Part shown: piece by piece, positions 2,769 to 11,968 of the stretch | Numbering within the stretch: the first letter of the stretch is position 1 | Layout of the letters: each line of letters begins with the position of its first letter | From: Clostridia bacterium | GTDB taxonomy: Bacteria; Bacillota; Clostridia; Oscillospirales; CAG-272 | Length of the DNA: 64,000 bases | NCBI GenBank assembly: GCA_017428635.1 | Contig: JAFRQK010000035.1 | Location: 12,632-76,631, forward strand | Reading direction: 5' to 3' | Program-made: the position numbers and the translations under genes | The notes under the pieces: generated by a model | Databases searched by the model: none | The model's input: the letters and a program-made list of their open reading frames with translations, nothing else | What the model was told of the DNA's origin: nothing

Positions 2769-3290
2769 ATGACGAAAATACTGATTGCGTTCTTTTCAAG
2801 AGCGGACGAAAACTACTTCGGCGGCGCCATGCGTTACGTAAAGGTCGGAAACACCGAGATCGTGTGCGGCATTATCAAAGATCTGATCGACGCGGATACG
2901 TTCAGGATCGAAATGAAGGATCCGTATTCACCGTCCTATGCGGTCTGTATCGAGGAAGCGAAGAAGGATCTTCGCGAGGGGGCAAGACCGGAGCTGGTCC
3001 GTTATCCCGACGGCGTCGACGGATACGATACCGTCATTCTCGCGTACCCGAATTACTGGGGAACGATACCGATGGCGGTGGCGACGTTTCTTGAGAAGTT
3101 CGACTTCACGGGCAAGAGGATCCTTCCGCTCTGCACCAACGAGGGCAGCGGGATGGGCTCAAGCGAGCGAACGATCCGTCAGTGCGCGCCCGGCGCGGAA
3201 GTCGGAAACGGGCTTTCCGTTATCGGGAGCGGCGCCGCGGACTCCTCGCCGGACGTCAAACGGTGGCTGATCTCTAACGGACTTTTATGA
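2769..3290 (+). CDS. Flavodoxin
   Basis: ILIAFFSRA...GNT, YPNYWGTIP, CTNEGSGMG; AAGGAG RBS before ATG 2769. Confidence 0.88.
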   Translation: MTKILIAFFSRADENYFGGAMRYVKVGNTEIVCGIIKDLIDADTFRIEMKDPYSPSYAVCIEEAKKDLREGARPELVRYPDGVDGYDTVILAYPNYWGTIPMAVATFLEKFDFTGKRILPLCTNEGSGMGSSERTIRQCAPGAEVGNGLSVIGSGAADSSPDVKRWLISNGLL

Positions 3291-3370
3291 GTCGGGCGTC
3301 CTTTCAGATATCCGGCAATAGATCGGCACAAAGCGATCGGAGGATCGCGCAGACGATTATCGGAGGAAAA

Positions 3371-5656
3371 ATGGCAAGAAAAGTATTATCTTTGTTTATA
3401 TCGTTGTTATTTATGCTGTCTGCGGCGCACGCCGTTCTCGGAGACGGCGCCGCGGCGTCCTTTTCGGACGTCGACCCGAACGCATGGTATGCGGAATACG
3501 TAGAAGACGTATGCAGCCTCGGGATAATGACCGGCAAAGGCGGAGGAAAATTTGACCCCGAAGGCAACGTGACCCGCGCGGAGTTCGTGACTGTTCTCAA
3601 ACGGATCTCCGGCGACGCGGACGAAGTCGGCGCGTCGTCGTTTTCCGACGTTGCCGGTACGGACTGGTTTTATCCGTACGTGATCTGGGCGGCTGACAAG
3701 GGGATCGTGACGGGATACCCCGGCGGCGCGTTTTTGCCGAACGCGCGGATCCTTCGCTCGGAGATGGCGGCGATACTCGCCCGCTATATCCGGCTCACGG
3801 GATGCCGCGTCACGGAAGACCCCGACGCGGTCGCGAGTTTTCCCGACGTGCCTGCCGACGCGTGGTACGCCGCGGATCTTGAGGTGATGAGGACGACCGG
3901 ACTTCTGAGGGGCGACGCCGCGGGGCGTTTCCTGCCGGGCAATACCGCAACGCGCGCGGAAGCTGCGACGCTGTTCAAACGGTTTTACGATATGATCTCC
4001 GCGGAGGACCCGTACGAGAAACTGCTCGGCACGGTGCGCCTTGAAACAGAGACCGGACGCGACGTCGAGTCGAAAGAAGTGTATATAGGCACCTCGTTTT
4101 CGCTGACCGCGCCCGACGGACGCGAGATAGCCTACGACGAGATCAGTATCAGGGGACGCGGACAAGCGAGCTGGGGGCTCGAGAAAAAGCCATATAAGCT
4201 GAAGTTCCCCGAAAAGGTATGTCTTATGGACGAGAACGGAAGCGGGACGAAGGCGAAAGACTGGACGCTTATCCCCTGCCACTCGGACAAGAGCCTGATC
4301 AGGAATTATCTCGGATTCAAACTGGCGGGGACGCTTGACGGGATCGAGTGGACGCCGTATGGAGAACTCGTCCACGTATATCTCAACGGCGAGTACAGAG
4401 GCGTTTATCTTCTGTCGGAGCACGTCGAGGTCGCGAAGGGCAGAGTCGACATCAAGGACGGAACGAAGGACAATATCGGTTTCCTCATCGAGTACGACTC
4501 GTGGGCGACGGGAGAGTACAATACCGACTTTTTCTCCGTCGCGGGGATCAAATACTCGGTGCAGAGCGATTTCGGAAACGTCGACCAGGTGATCGCGATG
4601 AAGTGCCACCTGGAGACGGTATACAACGCCGTGCTGGAGGGAGACCTTGAGAAGGTCGAACAGTACGTCGATCTGGCGTCGGCTGTCGATATATACCTTA
4701 TCAACGAGATATACAGAAACAACGACGTCGACTGGTCGTCGTTCTTCATGTATTTCAAGGAGCCGCAGGGAAAACTCTATTTCGGTCCCGTATGGGATCT
4801 GAATCTCGCATTCGGCAACTCGTCCGAGCAGACGTCGACGTCGGGTCTCGCCGTCGGTCATATCATCTCGACGTCGGGCAAGTACAAGGGCGTCAGGAAC
4901 ACTTGGCTGGCCGCGTTCCTGTCCAACGACTGGTTCCGCCGGATGGCGGCGGAAAGATGGGAACAGATCAGGGACACCCTGAAAGAGACCGCCTCGGAAC
5001 AAATCGCCTTCGTCAAGTCGAGGATCGGGGATCTTGAGAAAAACTTCGAGGTCTGGGACATCCTGAACGTGGCGCTCGGGCAGGAGCCCGAGGCGACTCT
5101 CCGCTGCAATTCATGTCTTGAAAACGTCGAATACGTCGAGAACTGGCTGAAGGCGAGGATCGAATGGCTCGACGGATACTATTTGTCGCCCGCGTTCGGC
5201 GCGGACTATCCCGCCGACAAGACGAAGAACGGCTCCGCCGCGATCGGCAACACCGTGCCCGTCGGAACGCACGACGCGTGGGTGATCCCCGACTGGTTCG
5301 GAGGAGACAAGCAGGTACAGTTCATCGTCGACAACATTGAGGAGTTGTGCGGCATTACGCGCGGACGCATCGAGGTCCGGCTCGGCGGTTACGCGACGAT
5401 GACGCAGAAAAACGTCAGCAAGGTGCTCGTTGAGGAGTGCCTGAAATACGATCCCGCGAAATACGAAGTGTTCTTCGACGATGACGAATTTGAGGATGCG
5501 AGGGAACAGTACCACGGACTCGGGAACGGCCAGTCGATAATCTTCGAGTTCAGAACAGGCGTCAGGGACCTTGAGACCGGAGAAGAGTCGACGATGGTGA
5601 AAGTCAAATACACTTTTGTTAAAGACCTGTCCCTAAACGAAAAGTTCGGAGAATAA
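3371..5656 (+). CDS. Secreted S-layer homology (3x SLH) protein with CotH kinase domain
   Basis: Signal peptide; FSDV...WY and TRAE SLH repeats; RGRGQASW, KKPYKLKF, YRGVYLLSE, NNDVD, GPVWDLN CotH motifs. Confidence 0.88.
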   Translation: MARKVLSLFISLLFMLSAAHAVLGDGAAASFSDVDPNAWYAEYVEDVCSLGIMTGKGGGKFDPEGNVTRAEFVTVLKRISGDADEVGASSFSDVAGTDWFYPYVIWAADKGIVTGYPGGAFLPNARILRSEMAAILARYIRLTGCRVTEDPDAVASFPDVPADAWYAADLEVMRTTGLLRGDAAGRFLPGNTATRAEAATLFKRFYDMISAEDPYEKLLGTVRLETETGRDVESKEVYIGTSFSLTAPDGREIAYDEISIRGRGQASWGLEKKPYKLKFPEKVCLMDENGSGTKAKDWTLIPCHSDKSLIRNYLGFKLAGTLDGIEWTPYGELVHVYLNGEYRGVYLLSEHVEVAKGRVDIKDGTKDNIGFLIEYDSWATGEYNTDFFSVAGIKYSVQSDFGNVDQVIAMKCHLETVYNAVLEGDLEKVEQYVDLASAVDIYLINEIYRNNDVDWSSFFMYFKEPQGKLYFGPVWDLNLAFGNSSEQTSTSGLAVGHIISTSGKYKGVRNTWLAAFLSNDWFRRMAAERWEQIRDTLKETASEQIAFVKSRIGDLEKNFEVWDILNVALGQEPEATLRCNSCLENVEYVENWLKARIEWLDGYYLSPAFGADYPADKTKNGSAAIGNTVPVGTHDAWVIPDWFGGDKQVQFIVDNIEELCGITRGRIEVRLGGYATMTQKNVSKVLVEECLKYDPAKYEVFFDDDEFEDAREQYHGLGNGQSIIFEFRTGVRDLETGEESTMVKVKYTFVKDLSLNEKFGE

Positions 5657-5706: not shown

Positions 5707-6267
5707 TTACCAAATAGGATTTCCGTCTTTATCAAAGATAGGAAGCGGTTCGAGATATATCAGATCGTCCCTGTTCCGTGCGTCGCCCTCGGCGAGGATC
5801 GCCATTTTGCCGACGATGTTTCCTCCTGCTTCCTTTACGAGGTGTTCGAGCGCGGCGAGGCTCTTGCCGGTCGAAATGACGTCGTCGACGATCAGGATCC
5901 TCTTGCCCTTCATCTCGTCCGCGTCCGCCCGGTCGAGGTAGAGTTTCTGATCGCCGTCAGTCGTGATGGAGCGGACGTCGACTTCAAAGACCTCCTGCAT
6001 ATAGAGTTTCGCTTTCTTTCTCGCGATGAAATATTTGCGGTTGCCCATCAGACGCGCCATCTCGTGAGCGAGCGGGATGCCCTTCGCCTCGGCGGTGATT
6101 ATGTAGTCGTGCTCCGGAGCGCGCTCGATGAGCGCCTTCGCGGCGGCCGTGGTGAGTTCGGGATCGCCGAAGATCACGAACGCGCCGATGTACAGATCCT
6201 CGTTCAGCGGGCAAAGGGGAAGAGCGCGCTCGCAGCCCGCAATGTTCATTTTATAAGATTTTTTCAT
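5707..6267 (-). CDS. apt: Adenine/purine phosphoribosyltransferase
   Basis: TAEAKGIP, ARKK, ILIVDDVISTG PRPP-binding motif. Confidence 0.8.
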   Translation of the reverse strand: MKKSYKMNIAGCERALPLCPLNEDLYIGAFVIFGDPELTTAAAKALIERAPEHDYIITAEAKGIPLAHEMARLMGNRKYFIARKKAKLYMQEVFEVDVRSITTDGDQKLYLDRADADEMKGKRILIVDDVISTGKSLAALEHLVKEAGGNIVGKMAILAEGDARNRDDLIYLEPLPIFDKDGNPIW

Positions 6268-6278
6268 TTTTCGTCTCC

Positions 6279-8717
6279 TTATTTCGATCTGACCTCTGCG
6301 CCCAACACGTGAGCGATCTTGCGCATCACGGAGTCCGCGACGCTCTCGATCTCGGCGCCTGTCAGAGTTTTTTCGTTCGATCCTATGACGAGTCTGACCG
6401 TGACTGACTTCTTTCCGTCCGGTATCTGACGTCCCCTGTATTCGTCGACGAAGAGAACGTCTTTCAGGAGCGATCCCTCCGCTCCCTTTCCGAGGATCGC
6501 AGACTTCATATCATCCCACTTGACGGAGCCGTCGACGAGGAACGAGATGTCGAAGGTGTTCTCCGGAAATTCGGAGATATGCTCGTAGCAATTCGTTCTC
6601 GATCTGAAGGGGACGAGAGAGTCGAGATCGATCTCTGCGAGAGCCGCGGTCAGTACCTTGATGCCGCATCCCTGCGCCGCTTTCCTCGAGATCAGTCCGA
6701 GGTCGCCGATCTTCTTCCCGCCGAGGCATATATTCAGCCACGCGGCGTCATCGGCCCAGTACGGCTTCTCGATGCGCTCAAAGGCGAGGGGCTCCTGGTG
6801 AGTGTATCTCGGCATCGAACCGATGATACCCTTCGCCTGTCTGAACAATTCCTCGGCTTTCTCCGGACTTCCCGCGACGGCGAACCCGAGACGCCTTTCC
6901 TGACGCGGGAGCTCCTCGTTCGGATAGACCGACGTGTAGTCGCGATCGATGAAGACCTTCGCCTCCTCGAAGATGCCGAAGGAATCGTAGTTGTGTTCGT
7001 TCTTCACTATGGCGCGGCAGATATTCGGGATCATGGACGAGCGCAGGTACTTCTCCTCCGGAGACGGAGGGGTCGAGAGCGCGAGCACGCCGTCGGCGGA
7101 CGGGAGAGTCGCGTCAACAAACTCTTCGCTCATCCACGGATAGGTGAATATCTCCTGCATATCGCATCTGAAAGCGAGGTATTCCTTGACTTTTCTGACG
7201 AGATCCTCGTCCAGCTGGTTGATCGCTCCCTCGAAGGAAGCGGTGATCGTCGTTGCCTCGAAGTTGTCGTAGCCGTACATACGGGCGACCTCTTCCATGA
7301 TGTCGGCTTTTATGCCGACGTCGCCCGTGGAACGCCAGGTCGGAACGACGACGTGCATCTCGTCGTCCGAGTACGAGACCTCGAAGCCCATGATTCCGAG
7401 TTTGCGCTCGACGATCTCTTTCGGGATCCTCATGCCGAGACGGCGGTCGAGCCATTCGAGCGGAACGTCGATCTCTTTTCTCTCAAGATGCTCAGGATAG
7501 CAGTCCGTGAACGCCGTGACTTTCATGTCGGGGTAAAGTTCTTTGAATAATTTCAACGCGAGGGAAAGCGCCTGATCGCATCTCTCGGGATCTATCGCTT
7601 TCTCGTATCTCGCCGAGGATTCCGTTCTGTTGTCGTATCGGATCGCCGTGCGGCGGACCCCCCGGGCGTCGAAGTTTGCGACCTCGAGGATCACGTCCTT
7701 CGTGTCGGGAAGCACGGAGTCCTTAGCTCCTCCCATGACTCCTGCGAGCGCGACTGCTTCTTGTTCGTCGGCGATGACGAGGTCGTCGGCAGTGAGCTTC
7801 AGTTCCTTATCGTTGAGGAGCCTGAGAGTTTCTCCGTCCTTCGCCCTTCTGACCTCGATGTGACCCTTTATCATGTCGGCGTCGAAAACGTGAGTCGGCT
7901 GACCGACCGCGAGCATTACGTAGTTCGTCACGTCGACGAGGGCGTTGATCGGACGGAGCCCCACCTTCCAGAGGCGGCTCCTCATCTCGAACGGGGCGTC
8001 CTTGACGCACAGCCCTTCGATCCTGCTTCCGATGTATCTCGGGCATCGCTTCGTATCAAGTATACGGACGTCGAAGGGGGTCTCTGTCTCGGGAACGCAG
8101 GCGGGGATCGGCTTCAGGGGCAGATCGTAGAGCGCCGCAAGTTCGCGCGCTATGCCGTAGTGGCCCCAGAGGTCGGGACGATTGGTCATCGATTTGTTGT
8201 CTATCTCAAGGATGTAGTCGTCAAGTCCGAGGGCTAGAGAGAGAGGAGTGCCCGCGGCAGCGTCGAAGGAGGAGAGATCCATTATCTCGTGCTCCTCTGC
8301 CGCCGGAAACAGTCCGTCCATGCCGACCTCGACCGACGCGCAGATCATTCCGAAGGACTCCGCTCCGCGGAGCGTCGCGTTCTTGATCTCGACGGGTTCG
8401 CCTTCCCCGTGCCATCGCACGAAAGCGCCCGGGGTCGCGACGACGACTTTCATCCCGGCCTCGAGGTTGCTCCCTCCGCAGACGATATCCTTTATCTCAC
8501 TGCCGATATCCACTCGGCAGATACGGAGTTTGTCGGCGTTCGGATGCGGGAGGACTTCCTCGATCACGCCTACGATCATTCCGTCATAGCGGCGCGCGAG
8601 TTCCTCCATGCCCTCGACCTCGACGGTAGACATTGTGAGATCGTAAGCGAGGCGCTTCAGGTCGAGCTCTGCGGGGAGATCGACGAAATCTTTTATCCAG
8701 TTGAGTGATAGCTTCAT
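6279..8717 (-). CDS. pheT: Phenylalanine-tRNA ligase beta subunit
   Basis: HPNADKL OB fold, NRPDL, ALAGVMGG, DIMEEVARMYGY, C-terminal FDX-ACB; follows pheS. Confidence 0.95.
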   Translation of the reverse strand: MKLSLNWIKDFVDLPAELDLKRLAYDLTMSTVEVEGMEELARRYDGMIVGVIEEVLPHPNADKLRICRVDIGSEIKDIVCGGSNLEAGMKVVVATPGAFVRWHGEGEPVEIKNATLRGAESFGMICASVEVGMDGLFPAAEEHEIMDLSSFDAAAGTPLSLALGLDDYILEIDNKSMTNRPDLWGHYGIARELAALYDLPLKPIPACVPETETPFDVRILDTKRCPRYIGSRIEGLCVKDAPFEMRSRLWKVGLRPINALVDVTNYVMLAVGQPTHVFDADMIKGHIEVRRAKDGETLRLLNDKELKLTADDLVIADEQEAVALAGVMGGAKDSVLPDTKDVILEVANFDARGVRRTAIRYDNRTESSARYEKAIDPERCDQALSLALKLFKELYPDMKVTAFTDCYPEHLERKEIDVPLEWLDRRLGMRIPKEIVERKLGIMGFEVSYSDDEMHVVVPTWRSTGDVGIKADIMEEVARMYGYDNFEATTITASFEGAINQLDEDLVRKVKEYLAFRCDMQEIFTYPWMSEEFVDATLPSADGVLALSTPPSPEEKYLRSSMIPNICRAIVKNEHNYDSFGIFEEAKVFIDRDYTSVYPNEELPRQERRLGFAVAGSPEKAEELFRQAKGIIGSMPRYTHQEPLAFERIEKPYWADDAAWLNICLGGKKIGDLGLISRKAAQGCGIKVLTAALAEIDLDSLVPFRSRTNCYEHISEFPENTFDISFLVDGSVKWDDMKSAILGKGAEGSLLKDVLFVDEYRGRQIPDGKKSVTVRLVIGSNEKTLTGAEIESVADSVMRKIAHVLGAEVRSK

Positions 8718-8732
8718 CGTTTCATCCTCCTC

Positions 8733-9767
8733 TCAGCAGAACTGTTTCAGGAATTTGAGGTCGGTGCTGTGGAACAGTCTGACGTCGTCGATGCCGTAGC
8801 GCATCATGACGAGACGGTCGAGACCGACGTTTACGTAAAAACCGGTGTACTCGTCGGGATCGAGCCCCGCTGCGCGGAGCACGTTCGGATGCGGGGTGCC
8901 GCCGGGCATTATCTCGATCCAACCCACGTGTTTGCAGACGCTGCAGCCTTGCCCGCCGCAGATCTGGCATCCCATATCTATCTCGAATCCGGGCTCGACG
9001 AAGGGAAAGAAGCCCGCTCTCATTCTGACCGGAACGTCTTTGCCGAACACCTTTGAAAGGATCGATTTTATCATGACCTTCCCGGCAGTAAAAGTGAATT
9101 CTTTATCGACGACCAGAGCCTCATACTGGAAGAATGCGCGCTCGTGGTGGCTGTCCGTCGTTTCGTTCCTGTAGACCCTTCCGGGATAGACGAAGCGGTA
9201 GGGCGGTTTGTGGGTCTGCATATAGCGAACGCTGTCGCCTGTCAGGTGAGGACGCAGGCAGAGCTTATCGGAAGCGGTCCCCGTGTCGTGACCCTCGATC
9301 CAGTAGGTATCCATGCTCTCCCTTGCGGGATGGTTCGGAGGAAAGTTGAGGTTGTCGAAGGCGTAGTATTCGCTCGTTATCTCGGGGCCGCCGAATATCT
9401 CGAAGCCCATTGAACGGAAAGCGTCGTTGAGGTCGTAGCACATCTGCGTGATCGGGTGAAGTCCGCCGCTCCCCGGAGCGAAACCGGGCAAAGTATAGTC
9501 GAAGTCGGGCGATACGCCGAATGCCGCCTCCTCGGCTTCCTCTTTTTTCTTCTGCAGCATTTCCTCGATCTCGGCTCTTACCTTGTTGGCAAACTGACCG
9601 ATGACCGGTCTTTGTTCGGGAGAGAGATTTCCCATTCCGCGAAGTACGGCGGTAAGTTCTCCCTTCTTGCCCAGGTACTTGATCCTGAACGCTTCGAGGT
9701 CGACGCCCGCCTGTGAAAGCGCTTCCGTCGCCTCCGCGCGGATCTTTTCAAGAATTTCCTTCATCAT
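8733..9767 (-). CDS. pheS: Phenylalanine-tRNA ligase alpha subunit (divergent active site)
   Basis: LGKKGELT, HPAR, GRVYRNE, FPFVEP, HPNVL, GLDRLVM; Phe T-box upstream. Confidence 0.93.
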   Translation of the reverse strand: MMKEILEKIRAEATEALSQAGVDLEAFRIKYLGKKGELTAVLRGMGNLSPEQRPVIGQFANKVRAEIEEMLQKKKEEAEEAAFGVSPDFDYTLPGFAPGSGGLHPITQMCYDLNDAFRSMGFEIFGGPEITSEYYAFDNLNFPPNHPARESMDTYWIEGHDTGTASDKLCLRPHLTGDSVRYMQTHKPPYRFVYPGRVYRNETTDSHHERAFFQYEALVVDKEFTFTAGKVMIKSILSKVFGKDVPVRMRAGFFPFVEPGFEIDMGCQICGGQGCSVCKHVGWIEIMPGGTPHPNVLRAAGLDPDEYTGFYVNVGLDRLVMMRYGIDDVRLFHSTDLKFLKQFC

Positions 9768-9804: not shown

Positions 9805-10035
9805 AAAAAAGCCCCGTCCTCAACGGGACGGGGCTCAATGCTCCGCGGTACCACCCGAGTTCCGATTTTTCGATCGGCTCTCTTCATCGCTGTAACGGGC
9901 GACCCGCGCCGGCCTACTGTTTTCAACCGGCGTGCTCGGAAGTGAAATGCCGCGCCGGACCACGAAGCCCCTCCCAGCCGCGGGGGCTCTCTCTTTGCGT
10001 GCTTTTTCCGGCGAAGCCGTCTTCGTCTTCGCATC
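9805..10035 (-). ncRNA. T-box riboswitch, Phe specifier
   Basis: Minus strand: AGAGAG and GCTG boxes, specifier TTC (9946-9944), T-box GGGTGGTACCGCG (~9856-9844), terminator GCCCCGTCC..GGACGGGGC-TTTTTT. Confidence 0.92.
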
Positions 10036-10121
10036 TTCGTTTATTTTAACAGAAGATATTTGTCTTGTCAAGACCGCCGCGCGGGTGCTATAATATCAAT
10101 TGTAAAAAAGGGAGTGAGAAA

Positions 10122-11222
10122 ATGGCGAAAAAGGCGAAAAAGAAAAAAGAGCAGGCGACGGAAAGACTGTCCGTCGTCGGAGGGATCAATAAATACAGAG
10201 GCGTGATCATGGGCGCCGCCGCCCTTATGATCTTTCTGTTCCATCACTGGACGGTGATAATCCCGTCCCTTTTTCCGAACCATCCGACGCTCGGGGCGAT
10301 CTCTCTTTTCGCCGTCACTCACGGCCACGCAGGGGTCGATATCTTCTTCCTTCTGTCCGGGATCGGTCTGGTCTGGGCGGCTGACAAGAGTTCGGTCGGA
10401 CGGTTTTATCTCAGGCGGATAAAAAGGGTATATATCCCGTTTCTCATCTGCTACGCAGTCCTTTTCCTTCTCACGGGGCAGTCGTTTCTGCGGTGGCTTC
10501 AGCTCGTAAGCGGATATTCGTTCCTCTTTGAGAACATGTACTCCGTTCTGTGGTTCGTTCCCGCCGTTCTGATCTTCTATCTCTTGTTCCCGCTGTACAA
10601 TTTTCTTCTCAAAAAACTGCGTTTTCCCGTCCTCGTCACCGCCGTCGCGATCGGGCTCTGGTATCTCGGGTCTCTTCTGCCGATCAGATACGACCTGTAC
10701 GGCTTTTACAACAGGATCCCCGTGTTCCTGATCGGCGTGATGCTCGGGCGGCTCGAAAAAGACGGAAAATTCCCCAAAACGAAACTTATTTACCTCGCGG
10801 GTCCCGTTCTGTTCGCCGCGGGCGTCGTGACGGCGCGCCTCGTCGAAAATCACGGCGTCCCCATGCTCGTTCCCGTCCCGAATTGCTTCGTCCCGACGCT
10901 CTGCCTCGGGATCGGGACCGTTCTCATCCTCGCTTTCATTCTCGATTTTCTGTACCGTTTCAGGATCGCCGGGAAGGTCGCCGATTTCGTTTGCGTCCCG
11001 TTTTCGTATCTCGGGAAAACATCCCTTGAGTTTTATCTCGTCCAGATGTTCACCGTCCGCGGGATCCTGTATTCCGACCGCGGGATCGTATCCGTGTCGA
11101 CCGGATCGACGCTCGGGAACGATCTGTTGATCCTTCTCGCCGCCGTCGGTCTTTCGTTCGTCCTCTCGACCGTCTCCGGTCTCGTCTGCAGGCTGATACC
11201 CGAGGGGAGGAAAAAGCCGTGA
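10122..11222 (+). CDS. Acyltransferase-3 family membrane acyltransferase
   Basis: ~10 TM segments; GVDIFFLLSG, RRIKRV, WFVP..LIFY motifs. Confidence 0.85.
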   Translation: MAKKAKKKKEQATERLSVVGGINKYRGVIMGAAALMIFLFHHWTVIIPSLFPNHPTLGAISLFAVTHGHAGVDIFFLLSGIGLVWAADKSSVGRFYLRRIKRVYIPFLICYAVLFLLTGQSFLRWLQLVSGYSFLFENMYSVLWFVPAVLIFYLLFPLYNFLLKKLRFPVLVTAVAIGLWYLGSLLPIRYDLYGFYNRIPVFLIGVMLGRLEKDGKFPKTKLIYLAGPVLFAAGVVTARLVENHGVPMLVPVPNCFVPTLCLGIGTVLILAFILDFLYRFRIAGKVADFVCVPFSYLGKTSLEFYLVQMFTVRGILYSDRGIVSVSTGSTLGNDLLILLAAVGLSFVLSTVSGLVCRLIPEGRKKP

Positions 11223-11968
11223 GCGGCGTGTCCCCGCGCGGTCTGTCCGCGAACGTTCTGAAGATCATCGCGGCGATCTCGATGACCGTCGATCACGTCG
11301 GCGTCCTTCTGTTTCCGAAGATCTACGTTCTGCGCATCGTCGGGCGTCTCGCGATGCCTCTTTTTGCCTGGTTCATAGCAGAGGGGATGATCAGGACGCG
11401 CTCGCCCGTCAGATACTTTCTGCGGGTCTTCACTCTCGCCGTCGTCTGTCAGATACCGTATATTCTAGTCGAGCGGGAGTTTTATCTCGGCATCCTCTTT
11501 ACTTTTTCGTGTTCCATAGGGATAATGGCGATCGTCCGGATCCTTCTTTATTCGCCCGAAAAAGAAACGACCCGGGAGGCCCGGGTCCTGTATGCGCTCG
11601 GCCTTTGCGCCGCCGTCGCGTTTGCGTATTTCCTTTGTAAGTACGTGAAGATCGACTACGGATTTTTGGGGATCCTTCTTCCCGTGAGCGCCTATCTGTT
11701 CCGCGGGAAAGGGGCGCGGACGGTATCGTTCACCGTCTGCCTTCTCGCGATGTGCGCCGTCCTCGTCCTCGGGGAGAACCCGTCGTCGTTTGCCGATATC
11801 CCGCGCATCGTCATGACGAAGGAGCCCGAGCCGTTCGCGCTTCTCGCGATCCCGCTGATCGCTCTGTACTCCGGGTACCGCGGGAAACTCAGGATGAAAT
11901 ATTTCTTCTATATCTTCTATCCCGCGCACATGCTGATCATCTACGCTTTATCGCTTATTCTGAAGTAA
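11219..11968 (+). CDS. TraX-family membrane protein
   Basis: LKIIAAISMTVDH, GRLAMPLFA, AEG, KYFFYIFYPAH. Confidence 0.88.
   Translation: MSGVSPRGLSANVLKIIAAISMTVDHVGVLLFPKIYVLRIVGRLAMPLFAWFIAEGMIRTRSPVRYFLRVFTLAVVCQIPYILVEREFYLGILFTFSCSIGIMAIVRILLYSPEKETTREARVLYALGLCAAVAFAYFLCKYVKIDYGFLGILLPVSAYLFRGKGARTVSFTVCLLAMCAVLVLGENPSSFADIPRIVMTKEPEPFALLAIPLIALYSGYRGKLRMKYFFYIFYPAHMLIIYALSLILK

Follow-up and report, generated by a model that had tools for sequence, protein, structure and literature searches.

A Tyr/Asn-pocket phenylalanyl-tRNA synthetase at the pheST locus of a Clostridia bacterium, apparently an undescribed homeoallele

In a 64,000-nucleotide stretch of the genome of a Clostridia bacterium (GenBank assembly GCA_017428635.1, contig JAFRQK010000035.1, positions 12,632 to 76,631; hereafter the window), the gene for the alpha subunit of phenylalanyl-tRNA synthetase (PheRS) departs from canonical bacterial pheS in its amino-acid pocket, which raises the question of whether it still encodes a phenylalanine enzyme and, if so, why such a pocket is found here. 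A first-pass annotation of the DNA had listed five motif substitutions, placed Tyr at the E. coli Ala294 position and Asn at the conserved Gly that follows, and offered three readings: an alternative solution for Phe recognition, an inhibitor-resistant PheRS, or altered substrate specificity. We found all five motifs in the translation of the open reading frame (8733-9767, minus strand), which encodes 344 aa; since database members have 343 aa, translation likely begins at the second ATG. The product carries the Pfam domains PF02912 and PF01409 and passes the model TIGR00468 by less than 2 bits (239.3, cut-off 237.45), and it lies under the cut-offs for archaeal/eukaryal PheRS alpha (NF003210, 144.2 vs 350), SrmL (NF051887, 100.1 vs 300) and SepRS (TIGR00470, 24.5 vs 380.65). 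Its AlphaFold2 model (pLDDT 85) has bacterial PheS as the best structural match, superposing 223 residues on E. coli PheS 6OZ5 (Z 30.2, 1.6 A), and the class II catalytic fold and the motif 2/3 arginines are present (R200=R195, R318=R301; window PheS first, E. coli second, here and below).

In bacterial PheRS the substrate ring is clamped by two Phe residues above a floor of invariant glycine, and Arg, Gln, Glu, His and Ser hold the Phe backbone (accessible text of PMC3275996 and PMC8136816). Ala294 gates para-substituted analogues, and Gln174 together with Glu210 holds the hydroxyl of m-Tyr (accessible text of PMC4066437), which reports a Phe/m-Tyr ratio of 35-fold for the E. coli enzyme. We aligned the window PheS with E. 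coli PheS (PDB ID 3PCO) using HMMER, counting residues along the printed rows of an alignment that runs without gaps through motif 3; for M. tuberculosis and T. thermophilus, residue numbers were matched by motif and not by printed alignment. The gate and floor assignments of the first-pass annotation are borne out: Y311=A294, V312=F295 and N313=G296, with codons that can be read directly (Tyr311, TAC, 8837-8835; Asn313, AAC, 8831-8829), followed by D317=E300. Misalignment as the source of the Tyr and Asn was rejected by this alignment and by the structural superposition. The further correspondences are S179=Q174, H174=Q169, T176=S171, M152=H155, P288=G271, P292=V275 and V257=T251, and, with the residue unchanged, F254=F248, F256=F250, Q214=Q208 and E216=E210. 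The amino/carboxyl ligands are therefore kept (R200, Q214, E216, H174 and T176, the last a change from Ser to Thr), as are both ring-clamping Phe (F254, F256), and the canonical Ala294 gate, glycine floor (G271, G296) and Gln174 are absent, with Tyr, Pro, Asn and Ser in their places. The window PheS has the same PF02912 and PF01409 domains, fold, motif 2/3 arginines, Q208/E210, F248/F250, full pheT and T-box control as canonical bacterial PheRS alpha (3PCO/6OZ5, P. aeruginosa 4P71, T. thermophilus 1B7Y; TIGR00468). It differs from it in having Y for A294, V for F295, N for G296, S for Q174, M for H155/Q, and P for each of T168, G271 and V275. The features of the locus are collected in Table 1.

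Table 1. Features of the pheST locus in the window
Feature	Positions	Strand	Basis
Sigma-70/sigma-A-like promoter match, 11/12, upstream of the T-box	10043..10071	-	consensus match only
T-box leader, host-genus type	9821..10038	-	RF00230, 88.3 bits, E 5.7e-20; just below the Rfam gathering score of 93 and not called at the gathering threshold
Intrinsic terminator hairpin then U run, overlapping the antiterminator	9811..9829	-	sequence
Coiled-coil tRNA arm (about aa 1-74) encoded by the 5' part of pheS, native to the host genus	9546..9767	-	identity, DNA matches, tree
Inferred crossover zone in pheS, about codons 74-86	9512..9546	-	DNA matches
Ser179 for E. coli Gln174	9231..9233	-	alignment and clade comparison
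pheS catalytic domain, Tyr/Asn-pocket clade	8733..9512	-	identity, SH-aLRT 99
Pro288-Gly-Gly-Thr-Pro292 for E. coli Gly271-Cys-Gly-Met-Val275	8892..8906	-	alignment and clade comparison
Tyr311-Val-Asn313 for E. coli Ala294-Phe-Gly296, motif 3	8829..8837	-	alignment and clade comparison
pheT, 812 aa, all domains, editing residues kept	6279..8717	-	TIGR00472 627.8 vs cut-off 402.65
apt-like phosphoribosyltransferase, native flank, downstream edge of the replaced block	5707..6267	-	NF005592

The T-box has a UUC specifier (9946-9944) and a UGGU bulge (9853-9850), and the pheT that adjoins pheS encodes a complete beta subunit, its anticodon-binding domain and editing domain both present. The operon with intact pheT and UUC T-box described by the first-pass annotation holds at the scores given in Table 1. 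The editing residues, named Asn250, His261 and Glu334 in PMC3275996, are kept throughout the carriers of this PheS type: in 161 carrier loci Asn was found in 161, His in 161 and Glu in 160. Besides pheT, no conserved neighbour was found in the best 80 carrier loci. Elsewhere in the window, an acyltransferase-3 and TraX-family pair (10065-11968, plus strand) is divergent from the T-box, and 3287-5656 (plus strand) encodes an S-layer-homology protein with a CotH-like region, read from the sequence with a weak NCBIfam match only.

This PheS is, moreover, the only one we could find in its genome. The source genome (G000, 96% complete) has one PF01409 match of PheS strength, the other being marginal at 19.9 bits, and a search of it for a second, canonical pheS returned none. 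The same was seen in 49 of 50 carriers from the best 80 loci, with G052 having a second, canonical match; in all five carriers of the class sample at 97-100% completeness, including the single-contig G377; and in the family sample, where 0/17 carriers hold a canonical pheS as well. In 24 regions of the source genome aligned to non-carriers, TTT/TTC codons face Phe at 203/329 positions and there is no sign of Phe-codon reassignment; in the same alignments the rates are similar for Tyr, which faces Tyr at 201/294, and for Leu, which faces Leu at 543/777. TyrRS is present in 5/5 carriers, and tRNA-Phe(GAA) in G184, G169, G022 and G377. In the source genome a contig-edge half of this tRNA was found, and its apparent absence was traced to a contig break, the 3' half at the start of contig C46 matching the tRNA-Phe of G022. 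Considering the single copy, the Phe T-box, the intact pheT editing and the unreassigned Phe codons, we regard it as very likely that the window PheRS charges tRNA-Phe with Phe. These same observations support the first reading of the annotation, an alternative solution for Phe recognition, well though indirectly, and make altered specificity for another amino acid unlikely. At position 37 the tRNA-Phe(GAA) of G377 (L241:1469-1544) has G and not A, and its anticodon stem differs too. Contig C29 of the source genome (183 kb), which holds the tyrS match, has a GC of 0.47 vs about 0.55-0.57 in most large contigs and is possibly misbinned or foreign.

The altered pocket is shared by a large and well-separated group of proteins. 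When 637 fetched PheS-like proteins covering the pocket region were split on identity at non-pocket positions, 416 fell into a high and 221 into a low group, and the bin from 55-60% held just 3 sequences. The counts are not independent, as many of the rows are near-copies. In the high group we found Y311 in 416/416, N313 in 408/416 (Ser in 8), S179 and P292 in 416/416 each, P288 in 415/416 and M152 in 414/416, so that the back and floor of the pocket are changed and fixed at these six positions, and the equivalents of the ring clamp (F248, F250) and of Q208, E210 and R195 are found in 416/416 clade members. In the low group the corresponding positions hold Ala (220/221), Gly (218/221) and Gln (205/221). 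The complete substitution set occurs in 405/637 proteins and in three congeneric genomes, which argues that the pocket changes are neither chance nor assembly error. In a quick, midpoint-rooted tree of the pheS catalytic domain (124 rows), the 50 Tyr/Asn rows group with one Ala/Asn outlier, P0129, and a branch of length 0.42 with SH-aLRT 99 divides them from all other rows, so the variant stands as a distinct clade. In a literature search that covered mainly openly accessible articles we found no earlier description or characterisation of it. Many clade members fall below the TIGR00468 cut-off, with NCBIfam scores of 213-239 vs 237.45. In GTDB genomes at least 569 of 599 candidate stretches were confirmed as relatives; across the best 80 loci median pS was 0.78 and pN 0.062, with dN/dS about 0.03 among unsaturated pairs, from which we conclude that the clade is under purifying selection. 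Two deep relatives show part of the signature: P0129 has Asn at the G296 position with Ala294 kept and P0344 has Tyr with Asp, and both are possible intermediates in the building of the pocket.

By source name the clade includes Clostridia, one Spirochaetaceae MAG, Kuenenbacteria, Dadabacteria, Methylococcales and many actinomycetes, with the same motifs in Streptomyces, Micromonospora, Kibdelosporangium, Actinokineospora, Frankia, Pilimelia and Nocardioides members (actinomycete accessions include WP_401419724.1, WP_233722988.1 and WP_328530094.1). It is rare in Clostridia (6/401 genomes of the class, the source genome counted) and occurs in 17/151 genomes of the family (source genome counted), spread over 13 genera; in this family sample, 9 carrier genera are represented by more than one genome, and 6 of these are mixed. 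Between genera, catalytic domains share 88-99% identity and the N-terminal arms differ widely. GC3 follows host GC (r 0.96, n=144), and clade pheST is found at housekeeping infC-rplT loci in L148, L156 and L224. A habitat restricted to ruminants was considered and rejected: 25 of the best 80 record titles name a ruminant host, but 7/80 metagenome titles are human gut, and the Patescibacteria and actinomycete members also contradict it. No mobile carrier was found, with 0/61 plasmid matches above 60% identity. Of 16 'phage' matches, one belongs to the clade; this record (L134, MT836033.1), filed as 'Bacteriophage sp.', has clade pheS-pheT among ordinary chromosomal genes and is probably a bacterial contig. 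In IMG/VR 1 contig matched. As regards expression, contigs from RNA runs with matches were short and made up a small share.

Comparison within the genus suggests how the window gene arose. Of 19 congeners searched, 3 carry the Tyr/Asn type (94-97% identical), 15 have another PheS and 1 has none. Where the flank is long enough (L037-L040, L051), canonical congeners show the same pheS-pheT-apt order, and in L037-L040 a T-box of the window's type precedes the canonical pheS; apt lies 3' of pheT in canonical congeners too and is 65-71% identical to that of the window. Within PheS, aa 21-60 share 76-82% identity with canonical congeners and 28-33% with other clade members, and aa 101-340 share 81-98% with clade members and 20-59% with congeners. 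At the DNA level, congener matches end at 9546-9585 and matches to carriers from other genera begin at 9507-9512. In the N-terminal tree a split with SH-aLRT 100 sets the window group apart from the rest of the clade, and the group shares an unresolved fork with relatives of the canonical type. The window pheT is 31-32% identical to the pheT of canonical congeners and 72.5% identical to that of a carrier in another genus, and it likely entered together with the catalytic domain. Judged from these comparisons, the window pheS is a chimera, in which a native T-box and N-terminal arm are joined to a foreign catalytic domain and pheT and followed by a native apt, and horizontal replacement of pheST in place is highly probable. 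The first-pass annotation had recognised neither this chimeric make-up nor the membership in a large clade that spans phyla. A pseudogene or misassembly was ruled out, the frames being open in all carriers with the low dN/dS given above and the same chimera occurring in G001, G002 and G014 and in about 50 database proteins.

Three PheRS lineages occupy the same locus within this one genus. In the third (G015, G006, G009) Pro stands at the G271 position and the Ala and Gly are canonical. This lineage lies behind a native-type T-box in L043-L047 (G015, G006, G009, G003, G021; same genus and family), apt follows in G015, G006 and G009, and pheS appears foreign throughout, its N-terminal arm included. 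Its PxG type was considered as a sister group of the Tyr/Asn clade; this status found no support, and the PxG type does not form a single clade in the quick tree. P0052 is a reciprocal mosaic, with a clade-type N-terminal arm and a catalytic domain nearly identical to that of the window, and may reflect recombination still going on at this same linker, or else an assembly artefact that joined two sequences.

On sequence grounds the pattern is a homeoallele-type replacement. Aminoacyl-tRNA synthetase homeoalleles (bacterial TyrRS-A/B, archaeal SerRS/ThrRS) are divergent forms that are seldom found together in a genome and displace one another at a shared locus through homologous recombination (accessible text of PMC3191353). 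Here a second, canonical match was found in 1/50 carriers and 0/17 of the family sample, and the T-box-pheS-pheT-apt order is shared by carriers and non-carrier congeners. For Phe, the accessible text of PMC3191353 names only the archaeal-type PheRS of spirochaetes, and the window form is bacterial-type; it further differs from described homeoalleles in that the crossover appears to lie inside pheS, giving a chimeric subunit, and in that the ligand pocket itself is rebuilt. The nearest likeness in the pocket is human/archaeal cytosolic PheRS (PheRS-A; 3L4G), which shares the Ser at the Gln174/Mt Gln180 position, a floor Asn and an altered aromatic set (PMC8136816 and PMC3275996, accessible text). 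PheRS-A differs in belonging to another family (NF003210, 144 vs 350), in having Asn at the Gly282 position, where the Tyr/Asn clade has Pro, and in losing one of the two clamping Phe, both of which the clade keeps. In the accessible text of PMC11580382 the PheRS families are A, B and M only. Taken together, the Tyr/Asn-pocket subtype is real and conserved, and as a PheRS homeoallele with a rebuilt pocket it is apparently undescribed so far.

How might such a pocket work? In human cytosolic PheRS, with Ser at the Gln position and Asn at the floor glycine (PMC8136816, accessible text), m-Tyr binds about tenfold more weakly and the aromatic triad is shifted (PMC3275996), so that a working PheRS with a re-lined pocket has precedent. 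In the window PheS, Tyr311 would fill the para-side space gated by Ala294 and may add a third aromatic contact, Ser179 would take away the Gln that holds the meta-hydroxyl of m-tyrosine, and Asn313 and Pro288 would raise the glycine floor and place Phe in a shifted pose. The tighter pocket would then reject ring-substituted Phe analogues and probably Phe-site inhibitors, with expression presumably still controlled by uncharged tRNA-Phe through the host T-box, and exclusion of such analogues or inhibitors would be the likely reason for spread. We lean towards this model, in which the sole PheS of this genome, chimeric and replaced in place, charges Phe through a re-lined pocket that excludes analogues or inhibitors and has spread for that reason. 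Several points speak against it. Tyr and Asn at these positions would probably leave the canonical Phe pose short of room. The E. coli pheT editing site already removes Tyr and m-Tyr (PMC4066437, accessible text), and an intact pheT editing site means less need for a stricter first sieve. The human-gut, fermentation and Patescibacteria records mean that no single habitat singles out one agent, and the M. tuberculosis auxiliary-pocket residues (accessible text of PMC12447630) are apparently unchanged by motif, so the drug pocket is not obviously closed. The lack of a conserved neighbour other than pheT in 80 carrier loci, the low frequency in Clostridia and the Ala/Gly lineage that swaps at the same locus weigh against the model too. 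The 'inhibitor-resistant PheRS' of the first-pass annotation is plausible, and repeated in-place replacements fit it; a literature search for resistance positions already described gave no result. A stronger form is tentative: this fourth Phe-pocket design could be a natural resistance PheRS that escapes a Phe-mimicking antibiotic or analogue, lies near actinomycete biosynthetic clusters and is sweeping gut Clostridia, where native pheST would have been overwritten from inside the gene. If so, the distribution of the clade would point to an undiscovered compound.

Among the alternatives to the exclusion model, the one that survives best, which we hold to be possible though doubtful, is that the clade is a neutral homeoallele, an old alternative pocket with ordinary Phe selectivity that moves by recombination without advantage. 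The exclusive and patchy distribution at one locus is as described for TyrRS, SerRS and ThrRS homeoalleles (PMC3191353, accessible text), the GC3 correlation implies long residence, and the low frequency in the class agrees; in addition, the unrelated lineage with canonical Ala/Gly swapping at the same locus in G015, G006 and G009 fits frequent neutral swapping. However, carriers are spread over several phyla and, within one family, over 13 genera, the substitutions concentrate on residues that line the ligand site and leave the catalytic residues untouched, and the catalytic domain keeps its high identity across genera despite the widely differing N-terminal arms. A second alternative, that the clade began as a self-resistance synthetase against a microbial PheRS inhibitor in actinomycetes or others and was adopted by gut bacteria as their only copy, seems to us improbable. 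Self-immunity synthetase genes are a known route (PMC7916415, accessible text), and such paralogues are likewise divergent with an altered active site; named actinomycetes from seven genera share the motifs, and some actinomycete members lie near biosynthetic genes, with pheS-pheT tail-to-tail with a terminal NRPS module in L143, a pair beside tailoring-type genes and not infC-rplT in L141/L142, and a pheST of a different lineage inside an NRPS-PKS cluster on pAB510a of Azospirillum B510. Yet the loci with context amount to two distinct actinomycete-like ones, one of them adjoining NRPS; the Azospirillum copy has the canonical Ala/Gly and is not a clade member; environmental and Patescibacteria sequences make up the deepest branches of the midpoint-rooted quick tree, in which the actinomycetes are nested; L148, L156 and L224 are at housekeeping loci; and, unlike self-resistance paralogues, the window gene is the only copy in its genome, at a housekeeping locus, with no extra copy in a biosynthetic cluster. 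That the enzyme loads a Phe precursor or an amino acid other than Phe, through reassignment of Phe codons or a two-step tRNA route, is very improbable. In its favour, six positions in or beside the pocket have changed at once and clade scores straddle the pheS cut-off. Against it, nearly all carriers have no other PheRS, the window keeps its UUC T-box, the Phe codons of the source genome face Phe, TyrRS is present in 5/5 carriers, no conserved partner enzyme lies nearby, and F254 and F256 are invariant.

The bacterial Phe pocket, with its Ala294 gate and glycine floor, has been treated as invariant, and here a natural, widespread, single-copy enzyme breaks these rules. The pheS counter-selection system rests on this pocket, which also underlies para-substituted-Phe engineering and antibacterial design against PheRS. 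The enzyme offers a direct test of Phe recognition, a new scaffold for non-canonical amino-acid work and a test of m-tyrosine rejection at the synthetic site, which the accessible text of PMC4066437 calls unlikely; it would also mark bacteria that PheRS-site compounds may miss. Moreover, the matched canonical alleles in the same genus provide paired enzymes for asking what selects homeoallele swaps.

Two further loci deserve mention. In L142 (6212-8257) and L141 (3592-5637), an actinomycete-like member has a short, 682-aa PheT without a tRNA_bind (B2) match, and the genes upstream of the pair encode a glycosyltransferase, an SDR, a histidine phosphatase and a TylF-like methyltransferase. In Azospirillum sp. 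B510 (L227:13004-44785, plasmid pAB510a, NC_013855.1), the pheS-pheT pair with canonical Ala/Gly has Pro at the G271 position and sits in a hybrid NRPS-PKS cluster with an autoinducer synthase, a WelO5-like oxygenase, a class IV aminotransferase, a thioesterase, a formyltransferase and LuxR. The cluster is a candidate for making a product that targets PheRS or uses Phe-tRNA.
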